Source: Aphanothece sacrum FPU1
Lineage (GTDB): Bacteria > Cyanobacteriota > Cyanobacteriia > Cyanobacteriales > Microcystaceae
Direction: 5' to 3'
Assembly (NCBI RefSeq): GCF_003864295.1
Contig: NZ_BDQK01000001.1
Location: 440,676 to 480,675 of the forward strand
DNA: 40,000 nt
Below, piece after piece: positions 10,502 through 33,293 of this stretch (its first letter is position 1; every line of letters begins with the position of its first letter). The position numbers were made by a program, and so were the translations under genes. The notes under the pieces were generated by a model. That model was not told the DNA's origin, did not search any database, and saw only the letters and a list, made by a program, of their open reading frames with translations.

Positions 10502-10593
10502 AAAATATTTTATACAAGGTTCCAGTTCCTAAATAGATATCTAATTTCTTTAAGTTCTTTTGTCAAAATATTGAGAAGTTTCATAAATTTTAT

Positions 10594-16338: not shown

Positions 16339-16850
16339 TAAATTCCGTGATTCTACATAAACTTAGTTGTTATGCTTATACCAAGTGTGCCTGACTCTCC
16401 CTCGATCTCGGTCACGGGTCAAGTTTATTAAACTTATAATGGGGGTACTCAAAACAAGAAAACCCATATTGATTAAGCATTTAAGTCATGTGAAAAGTTT
16501 TTTTTGGGACGGGGTACGATTATTTTATAGATGGGGTTACAGTATTTATAGGTCAGGGCATCTGTATTTATGCACTCAGGGTCAATCCCTTTCAGGAGAA
16601 GGGTTTGAGGCTAATCAGACCTGGATTTATGCCCGTTGGCCAAGGAACTCATTACCCTTCGATTGTATAAGGGCTAAAACTCTGACTAGAAAAGGCTTTT
16701 AAGGTTTTTTATTCCTCAATTTGAGACCCTGTTGAGTGTTAACAAAAGTGCCAAAAAGAAAATGTTACATTGGATACAGAATTGAATTCCGTGACAGCAC
16801 TGGGGAAGTTAAAAAAGCTTACTCCAGTTTTTTTTGGAACGGCTTGGGAG

Positions 16851-16912
16851 TTGGGTTTGGGGTGATGGGGTTTGGGGTGATGGGTGATGGGGTGATGGGT
16901 GATGGGTGATGA
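16851..16912. repeat. G-rich heptamer/octamer array (GGTGATG/GGGTGATG, about 8 units)
   Basis: ttgggtttggggtgatggggtttggggtgatgggtgatggggtgatgggtgatgggtgatg. This is the reverse complement of the CCCATCA family at 28236-28333. Confidence 0.95.
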
Positions 16913-17317
16913 GAAACTTGTTAGATGAGTGCAAAGAATGTGTCGAGTAAAATCTACGAATAATCACTTAGAAGCCTTAGTTGGTCTAGCTTTGCTTTTG
17001 AGTCCACAAATACAGGACTCCTTATGTAGAAATACATAACCCTCCTCTTTAAAATACTAGACCCCCATCCTCAAAAAAAAAATTTGATAGTTGCGATAAA
17101 AGACAGAGTAAGGACTTCACTATTTGAATACTCCCTAATAAGTTTAATGAATCTGAACTCACCCCCCATGACCCAAAGCCAAAAAGTGGGGGTGCTATAA
17201 CGATAGTAACGCCGAAGACAAATAGTCCATTGTTTATCCCCTTGCGATTTCTAAAAGCAAGTGACCGAACTTTCCATAAGTCACGCTGATAGTCACCCTC
17301 TAACTTCACGGAATTCA

Positions 17318-18787
17318 ATGCTACAAACAACCGGTCTAATTAAATCCGACTCATCAACGGCTACAACAGTAACCCCGAAGACTACCCCTTGTGCGCCAAA
17401 AGCGACTGGTGGATGTGGTAGCACTTCTTCGAGTCCCCAAGTTCTAGATGAAAGAATTGCCGAACGCATTGCCAAACACCCCTGTTATAGTGAAGATGCA
17501 CACCACCACTATGCACGGATGCACGTTGCAGTAGCACCCGCTTGTAACATTCAATGTAACTATTGTAACCGTAAATACGACTGTGCGAACGAAAGCCGTC
17601 CTGGAGTTGTCAGTGAAGTGCTGACCCCCGAAGAAGCTGCACACAAAGCCTTAGTCATTGCTGGAAAGATTCCCCAAATGACAGTTTTAGGGATTGCGGG
17701 TCCTGGTGATCCTTTAGCGAACCCCACACAAACTTTCCGTACCTTTGAATTAGTTGCCGAGAAAGCCCCAGATATTAAACTCTGCTTATCGAGTAATGGA
17801 TTGATGTTAACCGAATACATCGATCGCATTAAAGAACTCAACGTCGATCACGTTACCCTAACGATTAATATGATCGACCCAGAAATCGGTGAAAAAATCT
17901 ATCCTTGGGTACGTTATAACCGTAAACGCTACAAAGGCATCGAAGGAGTTAACATTCTCCACGAGAAACAAATGGAAGCCCTTGATGCACTGCGAGAAGC
18001 AGATGTCTTGTGCAAAGTTAACTCTGTAATGATCCCCGGCATTAATGACGAACACTTAATAGAAGTTAACGAAGTGATTCGTTCAAAAGGTGCTTTCCTG
18101 CACAATATTATGCCCCTGATCTCCGCCCCTGAACATGGAACCCACTTCGGGTTAACCGGACAAAGAGGCCCGACCCCCAAAGAACTGAAAGCTGTACAAG
18201 ACGGTTGTTCTGGCAACATGAAAATGATGCGCCACTGTCGTCAATGTCGGGCTGATGCGGTAGGATTATTAGGAGAAGATCGTTCTCAGGAATTCACTAA
18301 AGATAAATTCCTAGAAATGACTCCCGAATACGATATCGAGAAACGTCAAGAAGTCCACGCCAATATTGAAAAATTCACGGCGGAAGTAAAAGCAACACAG
18401 GCTAAACGCACTAGCACCAAACCCGTTAAAGAAGCACCGAAAATTCTGTTAGCGGTTGCGACAAAAGGAAATCGTTTAGTTAACCAACACTTCGGACACG
18501 CTAAAGAATTTCAAATCTTTGAAGTCGATGGCACTAATGTTAAATTTGTGGCACACCGCAAAGTTGATCTTTATTGTCAAAGTGGTTACGGAGAAGAAGC
18601 GACCCTAGAAAACATCATTAAAGCTATCTCCGATTGTCAAGGAGTCCTTGCTGCTAAAATTGGCAACTGTCCTCAAGAAGAATTACGCAAAGCCGGGGTA
18701 GAACCCTTTGAAGCTTACGATGTCATTGATAAAGTTGCTCTCGACTTCTATCAACAATACCAGCAAAAGCAGTCCGTAGGAGTTTAA
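17318..18787 (+). CDS. nifB: NifB (radical SAM FeMo-cofactor biosynthesis protein with C-terminal NifX-like domain)
   Basis: [14 protein letters not shown] radical-SAM motif and a C-terminal NifX/NafY-like domain ([13 protein letters not shown]). ATG at 17318 is preferred over the GTG at 17261. Confidence 0.95.
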
Positions 18788-18789
18788 TT

Positions 18790-18984
18790 ATGAGTTATCA
18801 GAGTGCCACTCTTGTTAAAACTAACACTCATCAGTCTGGAACAGACACCCGAATGGGAATCAATTCTACCACGATGAAAAAAGAAATAGCTAATAGTTGT
18901 GGCATTTGTGTTGATGATCATCCAATCCCTCCCTGTACTGGCTTCTCTAAAGACTATAACTGTTCTCCCTCCTATAAACCATAA
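18790..18984 (+). CDS. Candidate 64-aa Cys-containing protein between nifB and fdxN
   Basis: The ATG lies 2 nt after the nifB stop, with AGGAG 8 nt upstream. The ORF fills 195 of the 224 bp between nifB and fdxN and has four Cys (CGIC...PPC...NC). No family recognised. Confidence 0.4.
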   Translation: MSYQSATLVKTNTHQSGTDTRMGINSTTMKKEIANSCGICVDDHPIPPCTGFSKDYNCSPSYKP

Positions 18985-19011
18985 ATCTGTGAATTAACAA
19001 AAGGTCGCGTC

Positions 19012-19362
19012 ATGAGTTACACCATCACTAATGAATGTATAAGCTGTCATCGCTGTCAAGTGGCTTGTCCCACTGATGCTATCCAAATACAAAACGGTAG
19101 ATTACTCATTGACGCGAACCTTTGTAATGAGTGTCGCGGCCATTACGGAACCCCCCAATGTGCCGCCGCTTGTCCCACAAATGCTGGTTGTTTGTCTCTA
19201 TCGGAGAAAATGGGTCAACCCAGGGACTATTGGGATACTTGGTTTAATCACTACAACACTCTCCTAACCAAGCTAAAACACGAAGAACCCACCTATTGTT
19301 GGGAGACTTGGTTTGATACTTATTCGCGCGAAATCGCCTCTTTAATGACGGCCCACAGTTAA
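19012..19362 (+). CDS. fdxN: 2x[4Fe-4S] ferredoxin FdxN
   Basis: CISCHRCQVACP and CNECRGHYGTPQCAAACP cluster motifs. Position nifB-fdxN-nifS is canonical in cyanobacteria. The gene is uninterrupted. Confidence 0.9.
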   Translation: MSYTITNECISCHRCQVACPTDAIQIQNGRLLIDANLCNECRGHYGTPQCAAACPTNAGCLSLSEKMGQPRDYWDTWFNHYNTLLTKLKHEEPTYCWETWFDTYSREIASLMTAHS

Positions 19363-19439
19363 CAGTCAACCACGAAAAAAATCACTGATAACTGATTAGG
19401 GAAACGGTATCATTGGCAACTTAATTTTGGTAACTATCG

Positions 19440-20642
19440 ATGCGAGAATGTATATATCTTGATAACAACGCCACCACCCAAATAGACGAGGAAGTCTTAG
19501 GGGCGATGATGCCCTACCTGACCCTCTACTATGGCAACCCCTCTAGTATGCACACCTTTGGCGGACAAGTAGGACGAGCCGTAACCACCGCTAGAGAACA
19601 GGTCGCCTCCCTTTTAGGGGCAGATGCTTCAGAAATCGTCTTTACCAGTTGTGGTACTGAAGGAGATAATGCTGCTATTCGTGGGGCCCTAGCTGCTCAA
19701 CCGAATAAACGCCATATCGTCACTAGCGAAGTTGAACACCCTGCTGTTCTTAATCTTTGCAAAAACCTTGAAAAACAGGGTTATACGGTAACATATCTTT
19801 CGGTTAATAATCAAGGACAACTTGACCTGAGTGAAGTAGAAGCCTCTCTCACCGGGAACACAGCCCTAGTTTCGATTATGTATGCGAATAATGAAACTGG
19901 CGTTGTCTTCCCAGTAGAAAAGGTGGGGCAACTGGCGAAAGATTATGGAGCGATCTTCCATGTGGATGCAGTGCAAGCAGTGGGAAAAATTCCTCTCAAT
20001 ATGCAAACTAGCACCATAGATCTCTTAACCCTCTCTGGTCATAAAATCCATGCTCCTAAAGGCATTGGTGCTTTGTATGTCCGTCGCGGTACTCGCTTCC
20101 GTCCTTCCATGATTGGGGGACATCAAGAACGGGGCCGTCGGGCAGGTACGGAAAATGTCCCTGGGATTGTAGCATTAGGAAAAGCGGCCGAGTTAGCTCA
20201 ATATCATTTAGCTAATGTGTCTGGCGAACGGCAATTACGGGATTATTTAGAACAAACAATTCTGACTTTAATTCCGAATACGGTGGTCAATGGTCATCCG
20301 ATTCAACGATTGCCTAATACGACAAATATTGGTTTCAAATATATTGAAGGTGAGGCGATCTTACTCTCTCTAAATCAATATGAGATTTGTGCTTCTTCGG
20401 GTTCTGCTTGTACCTCTGGTTCCTTAGAACCTTCTCACGTCCTGCGGGCTATGGGACTTCCTTACAGTGTTCTTCACGGTTCGATTCGCTTTAGCCTTTC
20501 TCGTTATACAACACAAACTCAGATTGATCGAGTTCTTGAGGTTTTACCAGGAATCATTGAGCGATTACGGGCTTTATCTCCCTTTAATAGCGATGATTCT
20601 AGCTGGTTACAAGAACAAGAACTAGCCGTATTAGCTAAGTAA
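19440..20642 (+). CDS. nifS: Cysteine desulfurase NifS
   Basis: Class V aminotransferase with SGHKIHAPKG (PLP lysine) and SSGSACTSG active-site Cys loop. Confidence 0.95.
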   Translation: MRECIYLDNNATTQIDEEVLGAMMPYLTLYYGNPSSMHTFGGQVGRAVTTAREQVASLLGADASEIVFTSCGTEGDNAAIRGALAAQPNKRHIVTSEVEHPAVLNLCKNLEKQGYTVTYLSVNNQGQLDLSEVEASLTGNTALVSIMYANNETGVVFPVEKVGQLAKDYGAIFHVDAVQAVGKIPLNMQTSTIDLLTLSGHKIHAPKGIGALYVRRGTRFRPSMIGGHQERGRRAGTENVPGIVALGKAAELAQYHLANVSGERQLRDYLEQTILTLIPNTVVNGHPIQRLPNTTNIGFKYIEGEAILLSLNQYEICASSGSACTSGSLEPSHVLRAMGLPYSVLHGSIRFSLSRYTTQTQIDRVLEVLPGIIERLRALSPFNSDDSSWLQEQELAVLAK

Positions 20643-20810
20643 ATCATGAATGATAAATGATGAATGATGAATTGAAAAAATGGCTATAAAGGTAAGTATT
20701 ATACCTTCATAACTGACAATCTAGTCTAACAGTTCATAATTCATAATTCATAATTCATAATTCATAATTTAGAATTTTCTCAACTGATAACTGATAAGTG
20801 GTAACTGACT
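20643..20810. repeat. Composite heptamer element: ATGAATG-type arm, core CAATCTAGTCTAA, (TTCATAA)x5 arm, then AACTGAT units
   Basis: Left arm 20643-20673, core 20717-20729, right arm 20733-20769, AACTGATAACTGATAAGTGGTAACTGACT 20782-20810. It fills the whole nifS-nifU spacer. Confidence 0.95.
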
Positions 20811-21695
20811 ATGTGGGACTATACAGATAAGGTGATGGAATTCTTCTATAATCCTCGTAATCAGGGAACGATTACGGAGAAAAATGAAGGAGAAGCGATT
20901 ACAACCGGAGAAGTAGGTAGTATTTCTTGTGGAGACGCTTTAAGGTTACATCTTAAGATTGATACTGCTACAGAAATCATCTTAGATGCTCGGTTTCAAA
21001 CTTTTGGTTGTGCTTCTGCGATCGCGTCTTCTTCAGCATTAACTGAGTTATTGGTAGGCAAAACTTTAGATGAAGCTTTGAGTCTTACTAATAAACAAAT
21101 TGCTGAATTCTTAGGGGGTTTACCCGAAGAAAAAATGCACTGTTCAGTGATGGGACAAGAAGCATTAGAAGCAGCTATCTTTAATTATAGAGGGATTCCT
21201 CTTGATAATCATGACGATGATGAAGGAGCCTTAGTTTGCCGTTGTTTTGGGGTCAGTGATGCCAGAATTCGCAGAATTGTTTCTGAAAATGGTCTGACGA
21301 CTGCTGAACAAGTAACCCATTATGTGAAAGCAGGTGGAGGTTGTGGTTCTTGTCTAACAGATATTGATGATTTAATTGCAGAAATTGTGTTAGAACAAGA
21401 GACTGCAGTTGCTGCGGCGACTAAAGTTATTCAATCAAAAACAATTCCTACTACACCACTAACTAATCTACAAAAAATCACTCTTATTCAACAAATTCTC
21501 GAACAAGAAATCAAACCCATGTTAGCACAAGATGGGGGAGATGTAGAGTTATTTGATATCGAAGGAGATCTCGTTAAAGTAATTCTAAAAGGAGCTTGTG
21601 GTTCTTGTCCAAGTAGCACTGCTACCTTAAAAATGGGCATAGAAGCGCGATTACAAGAACGAATTTCACCGACTCTAACAGTCATTGCTGTGTAA
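20811..21695 (+). CDS. nifU: NifU Fe-S cluster scaffold
   Basis: N-terminal IscU-like domain (GDALRLHL...FGCASAIASS), central CRC...CGSC 2Fe-2S domain and C-terminal Nfu domain (GACGSCPSS). Confidence 0.95.
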   Translation: MWDYTDKVMEFFYNPRNQGTITEKNEGEAITTGEVGSISCGDALRLHLKIDTATEIILDARFQTFGCASAIASSSALTELLVGKTLDEALSLTNKQIAEFLGGLPEEKMHCSVMGQEALEAAIFNYRGIPLDNHDDDEGALVCRCFGVSDARIRRIVSENGLTTAEQVTHYVKAGGGCGSCLTDIDDLIAEIVLEQETAVAAATKVIQSKTIPTTPLTNLQKITLIQQILEQEIKPMLAQDGGDVELFDIEGDLVKVILKGACGSCPSSTATLKMGIEARLQERISPTLTVIAV

Positions 21696-21706
21696 TTAAT
21701 TGTCAA

Positions 21707-21800
21707 CTATGAATGAGAAATGATGACCTATGAATTGGAAAAATAGATGTCAACAATCTAGTCTAAAATTCATAATTCATAATTCATAATTCATAATTTT
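21707..21800. repeat. Second copy of the composite element (ATGAATG-type arm, core, (TTCATAA)x4-5)
   Basis: Left arm 21707-21736, core CAATCTAGTCTAA 21754-21766, right arm 21767-21800. A shorter paralogue of 20643-20769. Confidence 0.95.
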
Positions 21801-21881
21801 CCCAAGAGGCCCTATGTTATTCCAAAAAAATAGTCGAGAGCGGTCGCCACCAAACGAGCATCGCTTTCGCGAGAGTGTTGA

Positions 21882-22979
<1,098 letters not shown>

Positions 22980-23002
22980 TCTAGGGTACTCGCGCAATTA
23001 AA

Positions 23003-23023
23003 CCCATGTAACTGGGACATGGG
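23003..23023 (+). other. Stem-loop directly after nifH (CCCATGT-aactggg-ACATGGG)
   Basis: 7-bp perfect stem 24 nt after the nifH stop, with no U-tract. More likely an mRNA 3'-end or stability hairpin than a full terminator. Confidence 0.45.
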
Positions 23024-23033
23024 GGAATCAAAC

Positions 23034-23200
23034 CAGTGAACAGTGAACAGTGAACAGTAAACAGTTGTCAAAACTTTTAACTGATAACTGATAACTGATA
23101 ACTGATAACCCCCTTACCCCTTCTTCAGTGAACAGTAAACAGTAAACAGTAAACAGAGCAACAGTGATTTAACTGATAACTGATAACTGATAACTGGTAA
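23034..23200. repeat. Two tandem composite modules [(GTGAACA/GTAAACA)n - spacer - (AACTGAT)n]
   Basis: Module 1 is 23034-23110 and module 2 is 23126-23200. Four AACTGAT units in module 1 and about 3.5 in module 2. Confidence 0.95.
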
Positions 23201-23286
23201 TCCTCATCCTCACAAACACTCCCCACTCGTCTATTTGACGAGGGCGTTGTTCCATCCTAATCGCCAACCTATCACCGAGGAACACT

Positions 23287-24717
23287 ATGTCAACAGTAGA
23301 AGACAGAAAGCAGCTAATCAAAGACGTTCTTGATACTTACCCCGACAAGTTAGCCAAGAAACGTTCCAAACATCTTAACGTTTACGAAGAAGGCAAAGAC
23401 GATTGCGGTGTAAAATCTAACGTTAAGTCTGCACCTGGAGTTATGACCGCTCGTGGTTGTGCTTATGCAGGGTCTAAAGGGGTAGTTTGGGGTCCTATCA
23501 AAGATATGATCCACATCTCCCACGGGCCGGTTGGTTGTGGTTACTACTCTTGGTCTGGTCGTCGTAACTACTATATCGGAACCACTGGAGTTGATACCTT
23601 TGGTACGATGAACTTTACCTCTGATTTCCAAGAACGGGACATCGTTTTTGGTGGAGACAAAAAACTCCTGAAAATCACCGAGGAAATTGAAGAATTATTC
23701 CCCCTCAACAATGGGATTTCCATTCAATCTGAATGTCCTATTGGCTTAATCGGAGACGATATTGAAGGTGTTGCCCGTAAAGCGCAAAAAATCACCAACA
23801 AACCCGTTGTTCCCGTCCGTTGTGAAGGGTTCCGTGGAGTTTCTCAATCTTTAGGACACCACATCGCTAACGACGCAGTACGTGACTGGGTATTCAGTCG
23901 TACAGATGCAGCCGAAATCGAAACCACTCCTTATGACGTAGCCATCATCGGTGACTACAACATCGGTGGAGATGCTTGGTCTAGCCGTATTCTTCTCGAA
24001 GAAATGGGTCTACGCGTCGTTGCTCAATGGTCTGGAGACGGAACCATCAACGAAATGATGCAAACCCCCAAAGTGAAACTCAACCTGATTCACTGTTACC
24101 GTTCCATGAACTACATCAGTCGTCACATGGAAGAAAAATACGGTATTCCCTGGTTTGAATACAACTTCTTCGGCCCCACCAAAATTGCTGAATCTTTACG
24201 GGCGATCGCTGCACTCTTTGATGAAACCATCCAAGAAAAAGCAGAACAAGTAATCGCTAAGTACGAACAACAAACTGCAGATGTCTTAGCTAAATACCGT
24301 CCTCGTTTAGAAGGCAAAACCGTCATGATGATGGTTGGTGGATTACGTCCTCGTCACGTTGTTCCCGCTTTCACCGACTTAGGTATGGTCATGATTGGAA
24401 CCGGATATGAGTTCGCTCACGGTGACGACTATAAACGTACCACTGAGTATGTAGATGACGCAACCCTCATCTATGATGACGTAACTGCTTATGAGTTTGA
24501 AAAATTCGTTCAAGAACTCAAACCCGACTTAGTTGCTTCCGGTGTTAAAGAGAAGTATGTGTTCCAAAAAATGGGACTACCCTTCCGTCAAATGCACTCT
24601 TGGGATTACTCTGGCCCTTATCACGGTTATGACGGATTTGCTATCTTTGCACGGGATATGGACTTAGCTCTAAATAACCCAACTTGGGGGCTGATCAAAT
24701 CTCCTTGGAATAAATAA
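23287..24717 (+). CDS. nifD: Nitrogenase MoFe protein alpha chain NifD
   Basis: 476 aa with [19 protein letters not shown] (FeMo-co Cys) and [19 protein letters not shown] (FeMo-co His) motifs. Uninterrupted. Confidence 0.97.
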
Positions 24718-24808
24718 GACAAGGGAACAGGGGACAAGTTTCCCCCCTCCCCCTCTTATTGCCCAAACGATGCCTTACTATCCTTGATCGAAGAACGGAG
24801 TACCACCA

Positions 24809-26344
24809 ATGCCTCAGAATATAGATAACATTCAAGACCACGTTGAGTTATTTCATCAGCCTGAGTACCAAGAGTTATTTGAAAACAAAAAAGCCATGCA
24901 AGGTATGGCTGCTGATGAAGAAGTAACCAAAGTTGCTGAGTGGACCAAAAGTTGGGAATATCGTGAAAAGAACTTCGCTCGTGAAGCCCTCACCATCAAC
25001 CCCGCTAAAGCTTGTCAACCTTTAGGTGCTATCTTAGCAGCAGTTGGATTTGAAGGAACCCTCCCCTTTGTACACGGGTCACAAGGTTGTGTTGCTTACT
25101 TCCGTACCCACTTTACCCGTCACTTCAAAGAACCCTTTAGTGGTGTTTCTTCTTCCATGACTGAAGACGCAGCCGTTTTCGGTGGATTGAAAAACATGAT
25201 CGAAGGTTTAGAGAACGCCTACAATCTCTACAAACCCAAAATGATTGCTGTCTGTACAACTTGTATGGCAGAAGTTATTGGAGATGACTTAGGTTCCTTC
25301 ATCGGTAACTCTAAAGCAGCAGGTTCTGTTCCTGAAGATTTCCCCGTTCCCTTTGCTCATACTCCTTCTTTCGTTGGTTCTCATATCACTGGATATGACA
25401 ACATGATGAAAGCTGTCCTCGGCAACTTAACCGAAGGCAAAAAAGCTGCTACCACCAACGGCAAAATCAACTTTATTCCTGGGTTTGAAACCTATATTGG
25501 TAACTTACGCGAACTGAAACACTTAGTCAGTGCTATGGGCGTTAATGCTACCATCTTAGGCGACCACGAACTCTATTTAGATTCTCCTAACGATGGAGAA
25601 TTCAAAATGTACCAAGGCGGTACAACCTTAGCAGAAGGTGCAGATTCTATCAACGCTGAAAAAACCATCGCTCTGCAAACTTATCCTACCCTAAAAACCC
25701 TCGACTATATCGAGAAAGAATGGCAGCAACCCACCGCTACCTATCGTCCTTGGGGTATTCAAGCGACTGACGCTTTCTTAATGGGACTCTCTGAAATCAC
25801 AGGTAATCCTGTTCCCCCCGAATTAGAATTAGAACGGGGACGTGCAGTAGATGCCATGACCGATAGTCATGCTTGGTTACACGGCAAAACCGCCGCTATC
25901 TACGGTGATCCTGATCTTGTATTAGGCGTACTACAATTCTTGTTAGAAATGGGCGTAGAACCAGTTCACGTCTTAGTTAACAATTCTAGCGAAGAATTTG
26001 AAACAGAAGCCAAAGCCCTCTTAGCTTCTAGTCCTTACGGTCAAAAAGCAACCGTTTGGGGTGGTAAAGATTTATGGCATATGCGTTCTTTACTGTTCAC
26101 CGAACCCGTTGACTTCTTAGTTGGTAACTCCTACGGTAAATACCTCTGGCGCGATACCCAGATTCCTTTAATCCGCATCGGTTATCCTATCTTTGATCGT
26201 CACCACTTACACCGTTATTCTACCATTGGTTACAATGGCGCGATTAACCTACTAAATTGGATTGTTAACGCTCTATTTGAAGAAATTGACCGTAACACCA
26301 ATATCCCCTCGAAGACCGATATTTCCTTCGATTTAGTCCGTTAA
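24809..26344 (+). CDS. nifK: Nitrogenase MoFe protein beta chain NifK
   Basis: 511 aa; [32 protein letters not shown]-cluster ligand region. Confidence 0.97.
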
Positions 26345-26367
26345 TCAAAGGGAGACAAGGAAGAACA

Positions 26368-26394
26368 GGGGGAAAAGGAATTCTTTTCCTCCCC
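26368..26394 (+). terminator. Hairpin after nifK (GGGGGAAAAG-gaatt-CTTTTCCtCCCC)
   Basis: 7-bp core stem extendable with a bulge, 24 nt after the nifK stop, followed by CTCTCCTTTT. A weak terminator or processing candidate. Confidence 0.4.
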
Positions 26395-26407
26395 CCCCTC
26401 TCCTTTT

Positions 26408-26443
26408 AGAAGTTAGAAGTTAGAAGTCAGAAGTCAGAAGTTA
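26408..26443. repeat. Heptamer array (GAAGTTA/GAAGTCA)x5
   Basis: agaagttagaagttagaagtcagaagtcagaagtta, read directly. Confidence 0.95.
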
Positions 26444-26492
26444 AATGCTTTTTATGCTTCCTTTATTTCGACCAAAAGTAGAGATATATGAC

Positions 26493-26531
26493 CAGTGAAC
26501 AGTGATTTAACTGATAACTGATAACTGATAA
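26493..26531. repeat. Composite GTGAACA - (AACTGAT)x3 module
   Basis: cagtgaacagtgatttaactgataactgataactgataa is near-identical to 23160-23198. Confidence 0.95.
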
Positions 26532-26642
26532 AGCTCAATCCTCTCTACCACCAATTTATTATTTTGCGCTTACGCGCTCTCACTTAAATGTGCTGATGTT
26601 TGCGGCGAAGATGTTGGTCATTATATCTGTTAAAGGGACGCA

Positions 26643-26722
26643 ATAGTTAATAGTTAATGGTTAGTAGTTTATACATAAAAACTATCAATTATCAACTGTT
26701 AACTATTAACTCTCAACTCTCA
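26643..26722. repeat. Inverted heptamer arms (TAGTTAA-type, then TTAACTA/TCAACTA-type) immediately upstream of nifE
   Basis: atagttaatagttaatggttagtagtt - tatacataaa - aactatcaattatcaactgttaactattaactctcaactctc. The arms are imperfect complements. Confidence 0.9.
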
Positions 26723-26736
26723 AAAGGAATTCAGTC

Positions 26737-28149
26737 ATGAAATTAACAAAAGGCAAAATCAACGAACTGCTAACGCAACCCGGTTGTGAGCATAATCATA
26801 AAAAAGAGGGTGAGGGTAAAAATAAGTCTTGTACCCAACAAGCTCAACCCGGTTCTGCTCAAGGAGGCTGCGCTTTTGATGGTGCATCTATCGCCCTTGT
26901 TCCTATCACCGATGCAGCCCATTTAGTTCATGGTTCTATTGCTTGTTCTGGTAATACTTGGGGCAGTCGTGGCAGTCTGTCAAGCGGCCCTAATACTTAT
27001 AAAATGGGTTTTACAACTGATTTATCAGAAAATGATGTTATTTTTGGTGGTGAGAAAAAACTTTATCAAGCAATTGGTCAACTCATTACACGTTATCATC
27101 CAGCCGCAGTTTTTGTCTATTCAACTTGTGTTACTGCCCTCATTGGGGATGATTTAGATGCAGTCTGTAAAGCTGCTAGTAATAAGTTTGAAACTCCTAT
27201 TGTTCCGGTTCATGCACCAGGATTTGTGGGTAGCAAAAATCTGGGCAACCGTTTAGGAGGAGAAGCTTTACTTGACTATGTAGTCGGAACTAGAGAACCG
27301 GAATATACCACTCCTTATGATATTAATCTCATTGGAGAATATAATATCGCGGGTGAAATGTGGGGTGTTATTCCCTTATTAGAAAAAGCGGGATTTCGGG
27401 TTCTTTCTAAGATTACAGGTGATGCTCGTTATAATGAGGTTTGTTATGCTCATCGGGCTAAACTTAATGTTATGATTTGCTCGAAAGCTTTAATTAATAT
27501 GGCTACTGCCATGAAGGAACGTTACGATATTCCTTTCATAGAAGAATCCTTCTATGGTGTAGCTGATATGAACCGTTGTTTACGCAATATTGCCGCTTTC
27601 TTCGGTGATGCTGCTTTACAAGAACGGGTAGAAAATTTAATTGAAGAACAAACCCTTAAGTTAGACATCGCTTTGGCCCCTTATCGGCAAAGGTTAGAGG
27701 GTAAACGCATGGTCTTATATACAGGAGGTGTAAAAAGTTGGTCAATTGTATCAGCCGCTCAAGATTTAGGTATTGAAGTCGTCGCAACTAGCACTAAAAA
27801 AAGCACAGAAGAAGACAAAGCGCGTATTAAACAGTTGCTTGGTCAAGATGGCATTATGCTAGAAAAAGGCAGCCCCGAAGAACTATTACGAGTCATTGAA
27901 AAAACAAAGGCTGATTTATTAGTTGCAGGGGGACGTAATCAATATACTGCCCTGAAAGCTAGAATTCCCTTTTTAGATGTTAACCAAGAACGTCATCATC
28001 CTTATGCGGGTTATGTCGGTATGGTGGAAATGGCTAGAGAATTAGATGAGGCAGTACATAGTCCTATTTGGCGACAAGTCCGTCAAGCTGCCCCTTGGGA
28101 AATTTGGCAACAAGAACATGAAAGTTTGTTGCATTTGGAAGCAGAGTAG
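26737..28149 (+). CDS. nifE: NifE FeMo-cofactor scaffold subunit
   Basis: 470 aa; GCAFDGASIALVPITDAAHLVHGSIACSG and NifD-like architecture. Confidence 0.95.
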   Translation: MKLTKGKINELLTQPGCEHNHKKEGEGKNKSCTQQAQPGSAQGGCAFDGASIALVPITDAAHLVHGSIACSGNTWGSRGSLSSGPNTYKMGFTTDLSENDVIFGGEKKLYQAIGQLITRYHPAAVFVYSTCVTALIGDDLDAVCKAASNKFETPIVPVHAPGFVGSKNLGNRLGGEALLDYVVGTREPEYTTPYDINLIGEYNIAGEMWGVIPLLEKAGFRVLSKITGDARYNEVCYAHRAKLNVMICSKALINMATAMKERYDIPFIEESFYGVADMNRCLRNIAAFFGDAALQERVENLIEEQTLKLDIALAPYRQRLEGKRMVLYTGGVKSWSIVSAAQDLGIEVVATSTKKSTEEDKARIKQLLGQDGIMLEKGSPEELLRVIEKTKADLLVAGGRNQYTALKARIPFLDVNQERHHPYAGYVGMVEMARELDEAVHSPIWRQVRQAAPWEIWQQEHESLLHLEAE

Positions 28150-28333
28150 GGAGAGCAGGGAGCAGGGAGCAGGGAGCAGGGAGCAGGGAGCAGGGGAGCA
28201 GGGGGAGTAGGGGAGAAGAAAAATTGTCTTATTGTCCCATCATCCCATCATCCCATCACCCCATCACCCGATTACCCCATCACCCCATCACCCCATCACC
28301 CCATCATCCCATCATCCCATCATCCCATTACCC
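28149..28333. repeat. (GGGAGCA)x6-plus G-tract array followed by (CCCATCA/CCCCATCA)x~13 C-tract array
   Basis: The G-tract array spans 28149-28216 and starts at the last base of the nifE stop (TAG 28147-28149). The C-tract array spans 28236-28333 and ends 20 nt before the nifN ATG. Confidence 0.95.
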
Positions 28334-28352
28334 AACAGAAGGAGGAACGGAA

Positions 28353-29735
28353 ATGACCACTATTTTAAGTCCCAATAAGTCTCTATCAGTCAACCCCTTA
28401 AAAATGAGTCAACCTTTAGGCGCGGCCTTAGCGTTCTTAGGGTTAAAAGGAATGATGCCTTTATTTCATGGGGCCCAAGGTTGTACAGCCTTTGCTAAAG
28501 TAGTCTTAGTTCGTCATTTCCGTGAATCAATTCCCTTGTCTACCACTGCTATGACGGAAGTAAGTACCATTTTAGGGGGTGAAGACCATGTTGAGCAAGC
28601 TATCTTAACAATTGTTGACAAATATAAACCTCAAGTTATTGGTTTGTTAACTACAGGGTTAACGGAAACGAGAGGGGATGATATGGGAGGTATTCTCCAG
28701 GTAATTCGAGAACGTAACCCCAAATTAAACAATTTACCCATTATTTTCGTTTCTACTCCTGATTATAAAGGATCGTTACAAGATGGGTATACAGCCGCCA
28801 TAGAAAGCATTGTTTCTACGGACTATGGGTCTTTCACCCCTGACCAACCGTTGATGGCTTCTGTGGGGATGCAGCCTCAAGTGACCATTCTGTGTAGTTC
28901 CTCTTTATCTCCTGGAGATGTGGAAGAACTCAAAGCGATCGTGGAAGGATTTGGCTTAACTCCTATCATGATACCCGATCTGTCTCGTTCTTTGGATGGT
29001 CACTTAGAAGATAATCCTCATACGGTAACAACAGGGGGAACCACATTAACCCAACTGCAACAATTAAACCGTTCTTGCTTTACTTTAGCGGTTGGGGAAA
29101 GTATGCGCAAAGCAGCCCAAATTTTAGAACAACGGTTTGGGACTAAATATGAGGTTTTCTCCCGTTTAGCGGGGTTAGATGGAGTAGATGCCTTTTTATG
29201 GCGACTCTCTCAGATTATTACTTCCCGTTGTGATCATCATTTCCCCATTATCCCCAATATTCCGGCCTATCTGCAACGTCAACGCCGTCAGCTACAAGAT
29301 ACTATCCTCGATACTCACTTCTATTTTGGGGGCAAAAAGGTAGTTTTAGCTTTAGAACCGGATTTACTGCACCAAACCGCCTGGTTATTAAATTCTATGG
29401 GGGCTAAAATCCAAGGGGCTGTTACAACGACAAAATCCCCCTTATTAGAAGATTTACCCATAGAAACGGTAATAATCGGGGATTTAGAAGATTTAGAAGA
29501 TTTGGCTGTCGGCTGTGACCTGGTGATTACCAATTCTCATGGCGGCCCCATTGCCAAACGACTCCATGCCCCATTGTATCGTATGGGATATCCCGTATTT
29601 GATCAATTAGGCAATGGTCAACGATGTTTAGTAGGTTATCGAGGAACGATGCAATTTCTTTTTGATGTGGGTAATATTTTACTCGAAGAAGAAGTTAAAC
29701 ATAGTCCTTGTTCATCTACCTATGTTAATAGTTAA
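28353..29735 (+). CDS. nifN: NifN FeMo-cofactor scaffold subunit
   Basis: MTTILSPNKSLSVNPLKMSQPLGAALAFLGLKGMMPLFHGAQGCTAF with GGAGGA 7 nt upstream of ATG 28353. The ORF-track start (TTG 28224) merely translates the CCCATCA array. Confidence 0.93.
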   Translation: MTTILSPNKSLSVNPLKMSQPLGAALAFLGLKGMMPLFHGAQGCTAFAKVVLVRHFRESIPLSTTAMTEVSTILGGEDHVEQAILTIVDKYKPQVIGLLTTGLTETRGDDMGGILQVIRERNPKLNNLPIIFVSTPDYKGSLQDGYTAAIESIVSTDYGSFTPDQPLMASVGMQPQVTILCSSSLSPGDVEELKAIVEGFGLTPIMIPDLSRSLDGHLEDNPHTVTTGGTTLTQLQQLNRSCFTLAVGESMRKAAQILEQRFGTKYEVFSRLAGLDGVDAFLWRLSQIITSRCDHHFPIIPNIPAYLQRQRRQLQDTILDTHFYFGGKKVVLALEPDLLHQTAWLLNSMGAKIQGAVTTTKSPLLEDLPIETVIIGDLEDLEDLAVGCDLVITNSHGGPIAKRLHAPLYRMGYPVFDQLGNGQRCLVGYRGTMQFLFDVGNILLEEEVKHSPCSSTYVNS

Positions 29736-29803
29736 TAGTTGATAGTTAATGGTTAACAGCTATTAACTACCAACTCGTAACTATCAACTGCCAACGACTA
29801 CTT
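29724..29803. repeat. Inverted heptamer arms (TAGTTAA-type / TTAACTA-type) spanning the nifN stop
   Basis: gttaatagttaatagttgatagttaatggttaacagctattaactaccaactcgtaactatcaactgccaac. The inner stem TAGTTAAT/ATTAACTA is perfect and the outer pairing is imperfect. Confidence 0.9.
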
Positions 29804-29825
29804 ATTATCTCTAGGAGGAACGGAA

Positions 29826-30221
29826 ATGAAAGTTGCTTTTACGACCAGTGATAATGTTCATGTTAATGCCCATTTTGGTTCAGCTAGTCAAATTGCCCTC
29901 TATGATGTTTCTCCCAATGGGTTTAACTTTGTTAATACCTTGAAGTTTAACGGAGAATTAAAAGAAGATGGGAACGAAGATAAATTAGTTCCTAAAATCG
30001 AGGCTTTAAACGGTTGTACTTTAATCTATGTTTCTGCTATTGGAGGTAGTGCTGCAGCCCGTTTAATTCGTAAAAATGTAACCCCAATTAAAGCTCGTAC
30101 CGAAGATGATAAAATTGATGAAATTCTTGGTGAATTAGTCAAAACCTTAAAAGGAAATCCTCCTCCCTGGTTACGCAAAGTTCTACAACAAGAATCACAA
30201 CCTGTCAGTTTTGAAGACTAG
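29826..30221 (+). CDS. nifX: NifX
   Basis: MKVAFTTSDNVHVNAHFGSA... dinitrogenase FeMo-cofactor-binding fold, positioned after nifN. Confidence 0.92.
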   Translation: MKVAFTTSDNVHVNAHFGSASQIALYDVSPNGFNFVNTLKFNGELKEDGNEDKLVPKIEALNGCTLIYVSAIGGSAAARLIRKNVTPIKARTEDDKIDEILGELVKTLKGNPPPWLRKVLQQESQPVSFED

Positions 30222-30337
30222 GAATAGTAAATAGTAAATAGTGAATAGTTAATAGTGAATAGTTAATCAATACTCACTATCAACTATTAACTAAAAACCA
30301 TCAACTATCAACTATCAATTACTAACCATCAACTACT
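30222..30337. repeat. Inverted heptamer arms (AATAGTA/AATAGTG/AATAGTT then CACTATC/AACTATT/AACTATC) filling the nifX-DUF269 spacer
   Basis: Read directly. The spacer is repeat-derived from the base after the nifX stop to the base before the next ATG. Confidence 0.95.
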
Positions 30338-30814
30338 ATGACAACGACAACTCAAAATCCTGAAACATCTCCTAGTTTAATTGCAGAAAGTCTATTTCTA
30401 CAAGAATTAGTCCGTCAAATTCGCGCCTTTGATCACTATGGATTTTATCGAAGTTGGTCTGATGAATTAGTTCTGTCTCCTTTCATCATAGCTAAGAAGA
30501 AAAGACGGGAAATTTCCTTAGAAGGAGATGTTGACCCTACCACAAAAATGAGAATTCTCTGTTTCTATCGTGCCATTGCTTCTTTGATTGAAAAAGAAAC
30601 CGGACAATTATGTCAAGTGGTGGTAGATTTAAACCATGAAGGCTTTGGTTGGGTATTAATTTGGTGTGGTCGTTTAATGGTAGTCACTCGTACCTTAAGA
30701 GATGCTCATCGCTTTGGTTTTGAAACCATGGAATCTTTAGCAGAACAAGGGAAAAATTTAACAGCTTCCGGCGTTGAAATGGTTAAACGTTTTCCTGAAG
30801 TTGCTCAATTTTAA
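30338..30814 (+). CDS. NifX-associated nitrogen fixation protein (DUF269 family)
   Basis: 158 aa. SWSDELVLSPFIIAKKKRREISLEGDVDPTT...FYRAIA pattern and conserved position after nifX. Confidence 0.85.
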   Translation: MTTTTQNPETSPSLIAESLFLQELVRQIRAFDHYGFYRSWSDELVLSPFIIAKKKRREISLEGDVDPTTKMRILCFYRAIASLIEKETGQLCQVVVDLNHEGFGWVLIWCGRLMVVTRTLRDAHRFGFETMESLAEQGKNLTASGVEMVKRFPEVAQF

Positions 30815-30830
30815 CTGAGGAATAAGGACT

Positions 30831-31064
30831 ATGGTACAAATTATCAATTCCCTACCAACACCGGAAACTGTTGCTGATCTCAAAACCAAAATTCGGCGAC
30901 TAAATTCTCAAGCTGGTCAATCAAAAATGGACTTGCATGATCTCGCAGAAGGACTACCTACAGATTATGAAACTCTCCTAGAACAAGCCCAAAAAACTTA
31001 CGATATCTATCGTGAACTAGATCAACTGAAACAACAACTCAAACAATGGGAGGAAACCCTATAA
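30831..31064 (+). CDS. Small nif-cluster protein (DUF683 / CCE_0567-like)
   Basis: 77 aa and helical. The size and position between the DUF269 gene and nifW match the DUF683 family as I recall it. Confidence 0.7.
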   Translation: MVQIINSLPTPETVADLKTKIRRLNSQAGQSKMDLHDLAEGLPTDYETLLEQAQKTYDIYRELDQLKQQLKQWEETL

Positions 31065-31399
31065 TGACTGCTACTCCACAAACTTTAGTTGGCTTCAAAA
31101 GCTTAATCGATACCGAAGAATTTTTAGACTTTTTTGGCATTGAATACGACCCTACTTTTGTCAATGTCAATCGTCTACATATTCTCAAACAATTTTCTCT
31201 CTTAATTGCTGAAATTGATGAAGTTTTCGGTGACTTAACTGAAGCTGAAAAATTGGCTAAATATGGTGAAGCTTTTGAAGAAGCTTACGAACTTTTCAAA
31301 ACGTCTAGTCCCATAGAAACCAGACTGTTTAAAGTCTTCAAAGATAAGGCCAAAAACTTTGTTTCCTTAGACGAAATAAGCACAGAAGCTGGAGTTTAA
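31064..31399 (+). CDS. nifW: NifW
   Basis: FLDFFGIEYDPTFVNVNRLHILKQF is the NifW signature. ATG 31064 (TAATG overlap with the upstream stop) is preferred over ATG 31046. Confidence 0.9.
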   Translation: MTATPQTLVGFKSLIDTEEFLDFFGIEYDPTFVNVNRLHILKQFSLLIAEIDEVFGDLTEAEKLAKYGEAFEEAYELFKTSSPIETRLFKVFKDKAKNFVSLDEISTEAGV

Positions 31400-31407
31400 T
31401 TAAGATC

Positions 31408-32226
31408 ATGGAATTCACCCCTACTGAACTAGAACGCTATTCCCGACAAATACAACTTCCTGGTTTTGGCCAAGAAGGACAAAAACGCCTCAAGGACTCC
31501 ACTGCCGTCGTTACTGGAGTCGGGGGACTCGGCGGCACTGTAGCCCTTTATTTGGCTGTTGCTGGCGTAGGTAAATTAATTCTCGTTCGTGGGGGTGATT
31601 TGCGCCTTGATGACCTCAATCGTCAAATTTTGATGACTAATGCTTGGGTAGGTCAACCCAGAGTCTTTAAGGCTAGGGAAACCCTCTTAAATATTAACCC
31701 AGAAATCGAAATTGAGGCGGTTCACGAATTTGTCACCCCTGACAATGTGGATGCTTTAGTACAACAGGCTGATATTGCCTTTGACTGTGCCTTTGATTTT
31801 ACGGAACGGAATCTCCTCAATGCTGCTTGTGTGCGGTGGGGGGTTCCGATGGTGGAAGCAGCTATGAGTGGCATGGATGCGTACTTAACCACCATTATTC
31901 CTGGGGAAACTCCTTGTTTATCTTGTATTTTCCCAGAAAAACCAGATTGGGATCGATGGGGATTTGGGGTTTTAGGCGCAGTTTCAGGAACTTTAGCCTG
32001 TTTAGCTGCCTTAGAAGGAATTAAACTCCTCACTGGCCTCGGAGAACCCTTAACGGGTCAACTTTTGACGATGGACTTGGGCAGCGCAACTTTTGCTAAA
32101 CGTCGTCCTTATCATGATCCTAATTGTCCGGTTTGTGGGCATTTTACCCAACAACGGTTAATGAGTTACGTCGGAAAGCAAAAGGCACAAGTTCAGAATT
32201 ATGAATTCATAATTCATAATTCATAA
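31408..32226 (+). CDS. hesA: HesA (ThiF/MoeB-family adenylyltransferase)
   Basis: RYSRQIQLPGFGQEGQKRL, GVGGLGG nucleotide loop and CxxC pairs (CLSC, CPVC). The last ~9 codons lie in the TTCATAA array. Confidence 0.92.
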   Translation: MEFTPTELERYSRQIQLPGFGQEGQKRLKDSTAVVTGVGGLGGTVALYLAVAGVGKLILVRGGDLRLDDLNRQILMTNAWVGQPRVFKARETLLNINPEIEIEAVHEFVTPDNVDALVQQADIAFDCAFDFTERNLLNAACVRWGVPMVEAAMSGMDAYLTTIIPGETPCLSCIFPEKPDWDRWGFGVLGAVSGTLACLAALEGIKLLTGLGEPLTGQLLTMDLGSATFAKRRPYHDPNCPVCGHFTQQRLMSYVGKQKAQVQNYEFIIHNS

Positions 32227-32250
32227 TTTAGAATTTATAATTCATAATTT
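32195..32250. repeat. TTCATAA-family heptamer array overlapping the hesA 3' end
   Basis: agaattatgaattcataattcataattcataatttagaatttataattcataattt. It contains the 14-bp palindrome TTATGAATTCATAA. Confidence 0.95.
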
Positions 32251-32266
32251 CTATCAGGAGGTATCA

Positions 32267-32626
32267 ATGACAGTTACTCTAACAGAAAAAGCAGCATTTC
32301 GACTTCGCTCTTTTTTAAGAGGCGAAACCCCCAAAGTAAGCGGTATTAGAGTTGGGGTGATTAATGGAGGCTGCAATGGTCGTGAATATTCCTTAAATTT
32401 GGTCAGTGAACCTAAGACCGATGACTTGGTATTTGAACAAGATAGAGTTCCCATTTATGTGGATTCTAATAGTTCTACTTTGTTAAGTGGGGTTGTCATT
32501 GACTTTGTTGAAAGTTTAACCCAAAGTGGCTTTACTTTTAGTAATCCAAATGCAAGTAATACTTGTGGCTGTGGTAAGTCTTTCTCAACATCAGATTGTT
32601 CCAGTCAAGCATCATCTTGCGGCTAA
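32267..32626 (+). CDS. hesB: HesB (IscA-type Fe-S assembly protein)
   Basis: GGCNG...NPNASNTCGCGKSF IscA/HesB signature, with CAGGAGG upstream of the ATG. Confidence 0.92.
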   Translation: MTVTLTEKAAFRLRSFLRGETPKVSGIRVGVINGGCNGREYSLNLVSEPKTDDLVFEQDRVPIYVDSNSSTLLSGVVIDFVESLTQSGFTFSNPNASNTCGCGKSFSTSDCSSQASSCG

Positions 32627-32712
32627 AAAGTTTTGATTGTTTTATCGTTTTTTTTCTGTGAAAACGGTAACATATCAATTGTCAACGTTCCATTCCTGGA
32701 GAACAAGAAAAC

Positions 32713-33087
32713 ATGACTACAACCTACAAAGTTCGTCTCACCAAAGTTGTTAAAAGAAAAAATCAAGAGACGGGAAAGAAAGAAGAATTCACGGAAATGG
32801 ATCTTACTTTAGATGTTCCTGAGGATAAGTATATCCTTGAAGCGTTTGAAGATGCCATTAACGACGATGAAATTCAATACCCTGATGGTATTGATGAGTT
32901 GCCTTCTTCTTGTCGTTCAGGTTCTTGTTCTAGTTGCTTAGGCAGAATAGTAGAAGGAACAGTTAATCAAGAAGACCAAAGCTTTTTGGATGATGAGCAA
33001 ATGGAGAAAGGATGGGTACTTCTTTGTGTTGCTTATCCTACCTCAGATTGCATCATTAAAACTCACCAAGAAGCCAATCTTGGTTAA
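32713..33087 (+). CDS. fdxH: Plant-type [2Fe-2S] ferredoxin, FdxH-position, with two insertions
   Basis: CRSGSCSSC...[10 protein letters not shown] cluster motif and YKV N-terminus. At 124 aa it is about 25 aa longer than the canonical ~99 aa. Confidence 0.85.
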
Positions 33088-33099
33088 GTTAAACTAACA

Positions 33100-33155
33100 C
33101 AGTGAACAGTTATCAAAACTTTTAACTGATAACTGATAACTGATAACTGTTAAAC
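33100..33155. repeat. Composite GTGAACA - (AACTGAT)x4 module after fdxH
   Basis: cagtgaacagttatcaaaacttttaactgataactgataactgataactgttaaac is near-identical to 23050-23110. AACAGTTATC and GATAACTGTT are a perfect 10-bp inverted repeat. Confidence 0.95.
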
Positions 33156-33293
33156 ACCTTCATCCATCTGCTGGGGAAGTCGTTGTCACCCATAGACTAC
33201 GACTTCTCACCCTTTATCTTTGACTTTTGAAGGAAAACATAATTATGGATGTTACCCTAATTAACCCTAACAATAATTGGATTGAGGTCAGTC

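Follow-up and report, generated by a model that had tools for sequence, protein, structure and literature searches.

Heptanucleotide tandem repeats of the short tandemly repeated repetitive (STRR) class were reportedly described from heterocystous cyanobacteria by Mazel et al. in 1990. To our knowledge, the first records of heptamer repeats in cyanobacterial operons date back more than 30 years and no function has ever been demonstrated for them. Here we analyse the arrays of this type present in a 40,000-nt stretch of DNA from Aphanothece sacrum FPU1 (contig NZ_BDQK01000001.1, positions 440,676 to 480,675), hereafter named the window, in which they are unusually dense, ten spacers of a single nitrogen fixation (nif) operon being occupied. 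These arrays are STRR-class repeats, most of them arranged as two partly complementary arms. Among the STRR1-3 consensus units, which we take to be CCCCAGT, TTGGTCA and CAACAGT, the last one (STRR3) is one change away from the unit AACAGTG; the other units of the window match none of them.

Several described systems resemble this locus. Within N2 and H2 operons, as between hupS and hupL, STRR sequences consist, like the arrays of the window, of 7-bp tandem intergenic units of several families with pairs capable of forming hairpins (PMC2670836), and the hupS-hupL hairpins were proposed to confer a gain in transcript stability or translational coupling (PMC2670836). The class was defined in heterocystous filamentous strains, whereas the host of the window is unicellular. 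Its closest NifE homologues (85-88% identity) are those of unicellular Crocosphaera, Cyanothece and diatom-endosymbiont relatives, with Nostocales at about 80%, and its gene order is of the Cyanothece type, with cysE-nifV-nifZ-nifT divergent from nifB-fdxN-nifS-nifU-nifH-nifD-nifK-nifE-nifN-nifX-DUF269-DUF683-nifW-hesA-hesB-fdxH, followed by feoAB. By its sequence, the host is a unicellular cyanobacterium of the Cyanothece/Crocosphaera clade and not a heterocystous one. Hence, the assignment to the STRR class of heterocystous cyanobacteria made in a preliminary description of this DNA was right as to the class and wrong as to the host, given the affinity of its NifE to Crocosphaera and Cyanothece. 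Arrays were present in unicellular and non-heterocystous filamentous loci too; the restriction of STRR sequences to heterocystous strains fails here, and the literature had already eroded that criterion.

The nif spacers of Anabaena are 'highly variable but structured' according to the title of Jackman & Mulligan (1995, cited in PMC4284476). As far as that title goes, they resemble the present ones in that the sequence differs between close relatives and a repeat-built structure is kept, and they differ in lineage and in density, which is greater here with 10 spacers occupied; the copying of modules and the arm polarity described below are not part of the Anabaena spacer description in so far as it is known to us. 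In Anabaena variabilis the nifB promoter is the main driver of the nif1 cluster, conserved stem-loops accompany processed 5' ends at nifH1 and fdxH1, and half-lives vary from 7 to 34 min by segment (PMC4284476). The likeness to this nif1/vnf system lies in the long nifB-driven nif operon and in structured intercistronic elements tied to segmental stability, but the A. variabilis stem-loops at nifH1 and fdxH1 are conserved unique sequences and were not shown as heptamer arrays (PMC4284476). Repetitive extragenic palindromes (REP), bacterial interspersed mosaic elements (BIME) and REPINs (REP doublets forming hairpins) are also dispersed, hairpin-forming intergenic elements that are copied within the genome and thought to stabilise upstream mRNA (PMC3116915, PMC3733652). 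REPs, however, are unique palindromes mobilised by RAYT transposases, whereas the arms are here tandem heptamers; no transposase-like open reading frame (ORF) was noticed among the nif-arm genes during their identification with NCBIfam, in which no dedicated test for transposases was included.

The TAACTGA unit of the window is identical to, and like them forward and intergenic with, the TAACTGA direct repeats catalogued in Beggiatoaceae and 15 cyanobacteria (MacGregor 2015, PMC4679880), and the supplementary table of that work contains the orthologous nifH-nifD array (ACAGTAAACAGTAAA...TAACTGA x4) of Cyanothece PCC 8802. There, TAACTGA was treated alone, as an unstructured protein-binding site by start codons, whereas in the window it is the 3' arm of a hairpin with CAGTGAA or CAGTAAA. 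All the sets in the window (20782-20808, 23078-23109, 23170-23200, 26508-26531, 33123-33153 and the remnant at 19383) are in sense orientation. The start-codon pattern of Beggiatoaceae does not extend to them, as only the nifU set abuts an ATG.

Arrays were searched for in the whole 40-kb window with Tandem Repeats Finder (TRF) and with a lag-7 self-match scanner of our own. Sixteen strict period-7 arrays, totalling 506 nt with 3.4-8.6 copies each, were obtained, together with one further array of period 8. At every place named in the preliminary description TRF gave period-7 rows and the scanner agreed. All arrays were confined to 16.8-33.2 kb; neither TRF nor the scanner detected any at 1-16.8 kb, where none had been seen before, or at 33.2-40 kb, and periods of 4-6 and 9-12 gave 0-1 hits each in the scanner. 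Of the intergenic DNA of the window, 3189 nt belong to the nifB-to-fdxH arm and carry 17 arrays (565 nt), whereas the remaining 3112 nt, which include the minus-strand cysE-nifV-nifZ-nifT arm, have none. Among spacers of at least 30 nt, 10/13 in the nif arm carry arrays vs 0/19 elsewhere in the window, and 500 first-order Markov randomisations of the arm intergenic DNA did not yield a single array. The 10 occupied spacers, all within 16 kb, hold at least eight unit families, and no array is present in the remaining 24 kb of the window.

These results agree with the earlier count of at least ten spacers but not with the upper limit of 13 units, which corresponds to an octamer; heptamer arrays reach about 8-9 units at most. 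The CCCATCA heptamer reported between nifE and nifN is actually this octamer, CCCATCAC, with 12.2 copies at 28236-28333, and the run reported at 19383-19400 consists of only about 2.5 units. The statement that the nifS-U, nifE-N and nifX-DUF269 spacers are almost wholly repeat-derived proved correct.

Most arrays are two-armed, i.e. a left array is followed by a short loop and by a right array of a partly reverse-complementary unit. The left units ATGAATG, CAGTGAA or CAGTAAA, AATAGTT and GGGAGCA have TTCATAA, TAACTGA, AACTATC and CCCATCAC, respectively, as right units. In the window and the 80 genome loci introduced below, 60% of the adjacent array pairs were complementary at ≥5/7 positions vs 14% of random pairs. 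In minimum free energy (MFE) folds the array spacers form long imperfect stems with regularly spaced internal loops, and the arms pair with each other in nifS-U, nifU-H, nifH-D (two hairpins), nifK-E, nifN-X, nifX-DUF269 and the fdxH 3' region. The strongest array hairpin is that of nifX-DUF269 (z = -6.1), next comes the fdxH 3' region (z = -5.0), and the nifU-H, nifH-D and nifK-E spacers show z values from -2.7 to -3.9. The arrays and modules, all read on the plus strand, are the following.

16851-16912, plus strand: G-rich array of GGGTGAT/GGGGTTTG units between the divergent cysE and nifB genes, with the nifB start about 400 nt downstream of it (TRF 16853-16911, scanner).
19383-19399, plus strand: weak TAACTGA-type remnant of about 2.5 units in the fdxN-nifS spacer (read directly, under the TRF and scanner thresholds).
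20643-20776, plus strand: module A copy 1, nifS-nifU spacer, with left arm ATGAATG/AATGATG (20643-20674) and right arm TTCATAA x5-6 (20733-20776); the loop holds a 26-nt inserted mini-hairpin and the arms pair in the fold (TRF, scanner).
20782-20808, plus strand: AACTGAT (TAACTGA) x3.9, ending 2 nt before the nifU ATG (TRF).
21709-21798, plus strand: module A copy 2, 5' end of the nifU-nifH spacer, with degenerate ATGAATG (21709-21737), loop and TTCATAA x4.6 (21767-21798) (TRF, scanner, alignment with copy 1).
23034-23109, plus strand: module B copy 1, nifH-nifD, with CAGTGAA x4.6, loop GTCAAAACTTT and TAACTGA x4.6 (TRF, scanner, fold).
23126-23200, plus strand: module B', second nifH-nifD hairpin, with CAGTAAA x4.4, loop and TAACTGA x4.4 (TRF, scanner, fold).
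26406-26443, plus strand: GAAGTTA/GAAGTCA x5.4, directly 3' of the post-nifK G/C hairpin (TRF, scanner).
26492-26531, plus strand: copy of module B', nifK-nifE, with CAGTGAACAGTGA and TAACTGA x3.4 (89% identity to 23160-23205).
26642-26723, plus strand: module C, nifK-nifE, in which AATAGTT x4.6 (26642-26673) pairs with AACTATC x6.3 (26680-26723), ending 13 nt before the nifE ATG (TRF, fold).
28143-28213, plus strand: GGGAGCA x~9, beginning at the nifE stop codon, with Shine-Dalgarno (SD)-like units (GGAG) (TRF, scanner).
28236-28333, plus strand: octamer CCCATCAC x12.2, C-rich partner of GGGAGCA, ending 19 nt before the nifN ATG (TRF).
29724-29795, plus strand: module C, nifN-nifX, in which GTTAATA/TAGTTGA x4.7, sharing 12 nt with the 3' end of nifN, pairs with degenerate TTAACTA/CAACT units at 29757-29795 (TRF, fold).
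30222-30335, plus strand: module C filling the nifX-DUF269 spacer, with AATAGTA/AATAGTG x6.4 and ACTATCA x8.6 (TRF, scanner, fold).
32192-32249, plus strand: TTCATAA x8.3 over the hesA 3' end and the hesA-hesB spacer, with no left arm (TRF).
33099-33153, plus strand: module B copy 2, just 3' of fdxH, with ACAGTGAACAGTTATCAAAACTTT and TAACTGA x4.4 (TRF, fold; 87-92% identity to 23054-23124, loop included).

Modules have been duplicated between spacers as wholes, loops included. The nifS-U and nifU-H modules have both arms and the loop in common except for the 26-nt insert, the latter copy being a lineage-specific insertion with respect to clade relatives. The segments 23054-23124 and 33099-33169 share the loop TCAAAACTTT, 23160-23205 corresponds to 26498-26543, the AATAGTT/AACTATC module is present three times in the window, and the hesA-hesB array shows 91% identity to the right arm of module A. 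Since the module loops were not found in any other fetched locus, this copying appears to be recent, local and lineage-specific.

The recurrence of the arrays was analysed in 80 genome loci oriented on nifE and 80 metagenome loci oriented on nifX, in which nif genes were mapped by tblastn. In these 160 loci, unicellular, filamentous and heterocystous lineages have arrays in the same spacers, with units that mostly differ between lineages. An array was found in the nifK-E spacer of 54% of the loci, in nifS-U of 37%, in nifD-K of 32% and in nifE-N of 25%. Period 7 was dominant in the metagenome set, with 194 arrays, whereas period 8 gave 31 and period 9 gave 22. In the genome set (75 loci, the window and the endosymbionts being left out) an array was present in 170/670 nif spacers (25%) vs 22/288 flanking spacers (8%), all co-directional, with 2.21 vs 0.31 arrays per kb (odds ratio 4.1, Fisher p = 3e-11). 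In the 80 metagenome loci the values for co-directional spacers were 22% in nif vs 11% in the flanks (odds ratio 2.4, Fisher p = 3e-4) and 2.06 vs 0.51 arrays per kb. Per kb of co-directional spacer, the array density of nif is 4-7 times that of the flanks in both locus sets, in agreement with the 17 vs 0 arrays of the window and with the local nif enrichment noted earlier; both sets of figures refer to phylogenetically related loci with crudely called flank genes and to a local, not a whole-genome, comparison.

Individual sites showed different degrees of turnover. In nifH-nifD orthologues a two-armed array lies between a conserved GGGGG 5' stem-loop and a conserved CCCCCTTACCCC block (in the window, the basal stem under module B copy 1 is the conserved GGGGG/CCCCC), and four complementary unit pairs were found at this site, depending on the genome: CAGTGAA/TAACTGA, AATAGTG/CAACTAT, AGAATGC/TTCTAAA and GAAGTCA/CTTTTAC. 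After the nifK hairpin, the GAAGTYA unit stands at the same place in the window as in five Crocosphaera-clade loci, so some arrays are long-lived. Every clade member has a strongly structured nifX-DUF269 spacer, whose AATAGTT-type hairpin has been kept in diatom endosymbionts, in which the perfect arrays have decayed. Array number varies widely among free-living relatives. A near-identical strain for the study of 7-nt indels was sought, and exact NifX and NifH matches were found only on GCA_003864315.1, which is the same assembly; the best metagenome NifX reached 87%.

Arm polarity was compared in the adjacent complementary array pairs of the window and all 160 loci. The 5' arm was more G-skewed than the 3' arm in 43/45 informative pairs, and in 34/35 unique unit pairs the 5' arm was G-skewed and the 3' arm C-skewed (p = 2e-9), with G/C counts of 102/26 for left arms and 24/102 for right arms. 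Arrays in the first third of the spacer had more G than C (83 vs 19), those in the last third more C than G (53 vs 12), and skew correlated with spacer position (Spearman -0.54, p = 1e-19). The order [G-rich]-loop-[C-rich] is thus strongly preferred over the opposite one, the G-skewed array following closely on the stop codon of the preceding gene and the C-skewed, G-poor one preceding the next gene. Polarity cannot identify the transcribed strand, because it is invariant under reverse complement. One possibility is that it stems from selection for a G-poor leader at the start codon, avoiding spurious AUG, GUG or UUG codons and SD-like sites; complementarity of the arms would then impose the rest of the polarity.

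The strict placement at cistron boundaries had been regarded as unexplained. The placement itself was confirmed, with two arrays entering coding 3' ends (nifN by 12 nt, hesA by 23 nt). It is not unexplained: each 7-nt slippage event shifts the reading frame, 7 not being a multiple of 3, and about half of the units (47%) contain a stop triplet, so that the placement is largely forced, and spacers are the only DNA in the compact operon able to tolerate heptamer arrays. Arrays cluster at both edges of the spacer, with 58 in the first fifth and 41 in the last; a preference for the side of the upstream stop codon was discarded, the excess (90 vs 68) not being significant (p = 0.09). A barrier made of stop codons in three frames was also considered. 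As 7 mod 3 = 1, a stop triplet in the unit will have come into each of the three frames after three units, and TAACTGA has stops in all frames. A stop triplet is present in 47% of the sense units vs 44% expected and 56% in antisense (240 arrays), and the barrier was therefore rejected as a general property. The CCCATCAC array is free of stops and can be read through, which gives rise to a spurious TTG-extended nifN ORF. After confirmation of the gene identities against NCBIfam, the starts were corrected to 17318 (nifB), 22089 (nifH) and 28353 (nifN), the ORF list over-extending nifH and nifN.

One important question is whether the arrays have a function. That they take part in segmental stability, processing or decoupling of the nif cistrons had been suggested in the preliminary description; an RNA-structure role is plausible by virtue of the hairpin-forming arrays and the A. 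variabilis nif1 precedent, and it is not new. Its remark that no annotated feature explains the arrays holds for the annotation only, as the class and the stability and decoupling idea have already been published (PMC2670836; Jackman & Mulligan 1995, cited in PMC4284476; PMC4679880; PMC4692102). The explanation that we favour, with a probability of roughly 0.45, is that the arrays are slippage-built two-armed hairpin modules that modulate the stability of nif mRNA segments and their insulation. Arrays would arise and turn over through replication slippage, arm complementarity would be maintained through selection, template switching inside the quasi-palindrome or a combination of the two, and whole modules would be copied between neighbouring spacers, with frame-shifting changes in copy number confining the arrays to spacers. 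The paired arms would then fold as imperfect stem-loops in the long nif transcript, most likely serving as exonuclease barriers and determinants of endonucleolytic processing. The result would be a polycistronic mRNA whose segments have differing half-lives and whose adjacent cistrons are structurally insulated. The hairpin would be the functional unit and the heptamer array a fast-evolving way to build and resize it. This functional step is drawn by analogy with the A. variabilis nif1 operon and with REP-type intercistronic hairpins; the processing-site stem-loops of A. variabilis provide the sole experimental support for such a mechanism (PMC4284476). Also in its favour are the pairing of the arms in the folds, their co-variation, the repeated occupation of the same sites, the nif enrichment, the constancy of GAAGTYA after nifK, the structure retained in nifX-DUF269 throughout the clade and the copying of modules with their loops.

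A number of results weigh against a function in RNA stability. The nifE-N (z = +2) and nifS-U (z = -0.6) spacers are not more stable than shuffled sequences, several hairpins pair at only 4-5/7 positions, and the array-free spacers of the window are equally structured (mean z = -2.7), for which reason a higher structure of nif-arm spacers was rejected. Selection on sense RNA through G.U pairs was not supported, the sense strand being better in 22 arm pairs and the antisense strand in 36 (not significant). Intrinsic terminators were discarded, as a U-run follows no array hairpin; plus-strand terminator-like sites coincide with no array, and their total count equals the shuffled expectation. No Rfam 15 family matched the 40-kb window at the gathering score. 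In the N2-fixing endosymbionts (loci L008, L009, L011, L014 and L019; diatom spheroid bodies and UCYN-A) arrays were found in 0/61 nif spacers, and these keep similar lengths despite the loss; their nifS-U and nifE-N spacers have also lost structure. The nifH-nifD array is present in Cyanothece PCC 8802 and absent from PCC 8801, and the other TAACTGA sets of these strains, which differ mostly by 7-nt indels, lie mostly outside nif (atpB-atpE, trpC, pilT). This indicates that the arrays are neither nif-specific nor indispensable. Heptamer repeats are over-represented throughout the intergenic DNA of Nostoc (PMC4692102). Finally, the conserved non-repeat hairpin at 21952-22024 has the look of a constrained element, and the arrays evolve very differently.

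The alternative that best survives, and which we consider quite possible, is that the arrays are non-adaptive repeat DNA generated by slippage, template switching and local recombination or gene conversion, with selection only purging coding DNA and the hairpins being incidental. Units at the same site are completely different between relatives; the PCC 8801/8802 comparison, the variation among free-living relatives and the fact that streamlined endosymbionts fix N2 without arrays fit this explanation, as do the lack of a sense-strand G.U bias and of an enrichment in sense stop triplets, the Nostoc data and the restriction of the shared-loop module copies to this genome. It accounts less well for the 4-7 times higher density of nif spacers in two locus sets, for the arrays of distant lineages in the same spacers, for a GAAGTYA array constant in unit and place across genera, and for the endosymbiont nifX-DUF269 hairpin that outlasts the decay of its repeats. 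Moreover, symmetric slippage or template switching would not predict the strict arm polarity (34/35 unique pairs).

A bolder form of the functional explanation, in which the arrays represent a distinct class of fast-evolving intercistronic RNA elements with fixed polarity, preferentially recruited into cyanobacterial nif, and slippage sets the arm length to tune decay or translation of each cistron, seems unlikely to us. The same degree of doubt applies to its corollary, an evolvable rheostat for nitrogenase subunit stoichiometry that was lost in obligate endosymbionts.

It is improbable that the heptamers act as multivalent sites, each for one single-strand RNA- or DNA-binding protein (ribosomal protein S1, a cold-shock protein or a CsrA-like protein), tuning downstream translation initiation. 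Such binding was proposed for the TAACTGA repeats of Beggiatoaceae, which usually lie just upstream of starts, the class being known from Beggiatoaceae, 15 cyanobacteria and some Bacteroidetes (PMC4679880). In the window 6/6 TAACTGA sets are sense-oriented, one of them reaching to within 2 nt of the nifU ATG; of the TAACTGA x3 occurrences at other nif loci, 4/5 are on the plus strand; and C-rich, G-poor arms adjoin start codons. However, only 1/6 sets abuts a start, the others lying 40-205 nt upstream of the next one; a single sequence-specific binder is insufficient for an operon with at least eight unrelated unit families, let alone for the dozens found among its relatives; and the complementary partner arm of most arrays would compete with single-strand binding.

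Action at the level of DNA or transcription is more improbable still. The G-rich arrays (GGGTGAT, GGGAGCA) might form G-quadruplexes (G4) or R-loops, and the TTCATAA arrays might serve as internal sigma70-like promoters for nifU, nifH and hesB. Three G4-type motifs were found in the 40 kb with a regular expression (at least four G3 runs, spacing of up to 7 nt; matches at 16846-16906 and 28149-28213), all of them in these G-rich arrays, and cyanobacterial G-rich heptamer repeats form G4 in vitro (Rehm 2015, PMC4692102), the unit there being of the GGGNATC type, from which GGGTGAT and GGGAGCA differ. Likewise, (TTCATAA)n gives TTCATA-N17-CATAAT matches upstream of nifU, nifH and hesB, and the nif1 cluster of A. 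variabilis has weak internal promoters (PMC4284476). Against both versions, promoter-like matches follow automatically from the repeat sequence and are not in excess (40 vs 34.9 +/- 6.5 in shuffled DNA), C-rich partners of the G-rich arrays would compete with G4 folding, and most unit families are A+T-rich and incapable of forming G4.

Whatever their role, the arrays now have quantitative handles: the enrichment in nif vs flanks, the two-arm co-variation at a fixed site and the strict G-to-C polarity. Arm polarity and array-level co-variation deserve further study most. Should the hairpins indeed determine segmental mRNA stability, they would help to explain how a single nifB promoter yields unequal amounts of NifHDK and of the assembly proteins, and they would be useful as parts for nif cluster engineering. 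If they are not functional, the locus would be a clean example of slippage-prone repeats colonising the only permissive DNA of a compact operon, and annotators should mask the arrays, one of which makes a false 43-codon extension of nifN.

Conserved non-repeat structures were observed beside the arrays. The nifH leader contains a hairpin at 21952-22024 with a 13-bp lower stem and three compensatory pairs in nine sequences of the Crocosphaera clade and endosymbionts, and a second conserved stem upstream (21833-21873). The hairpin gave no match in Rfam; it is a better counterpart of the A. variabilis stem-loops than the arrays, and by analogy it may correspond to the processing-site stem-loop of nifH1. 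Directly after the nifK stop there is a G/C-rich hairpin followed by a short T-run (26368-26398), which could serve nifHDK as a terminal attenuator; it is conserved across the clade, with an endosymbiont among the members that have it. Upstream of nifD, at 23224-23246, the window shares a small conserved hairpin, CACTCGTCTATTTGACGAGGGCG, with loci L001 and L002 and with Cyanothece PCC 8802.

Additional coding sequences were found in the same arm. A 64-aa ORF between nifB and fdxN (18790-18984) is called in the NCBI record and belongs to no NCBIfam family; conservation of its Cys-rich C-terminal segment of about 30 residues, CGICVDDHPIPPCTGF, extends to at least 12 loci of the clade, some of them from endosymbionts. 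Two overlapping ORFs of 130 and 118 aa located 3' of fdxH (33282-34020) are syntenic throughout the clade, endosymbionts included, with 45-76% identity.

Repeats of other kinds were present in the first part of the window. The window shows 100% identity to two contigs of the draft assembly GCA_003864315.1, which breaks at 5520-5844, between contigs BDQL01000013 and BDQL01000047; the window therefore belongs to a more complete assembly of this strain or of an identical one. Tandem repeats of 16 bp (3.2 copies) and 41 bp (4.5 copies) lie at 2186-2431, between a periplasmic-binding-protein gene and a 647-aa ORF. A 155-nt repeat at 10592-10746 has another copy some 2.3 kb before the window begins (positions 6649-6803 of locus L082). 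A 191-nt inverted dispersed repeat, resembling a miniature inverted-repeat transposable element, occurs at 4392-4582 and 12103-12293 with 97% identity, and one of its copies sits in a spacer of the minus-strand nif arm.

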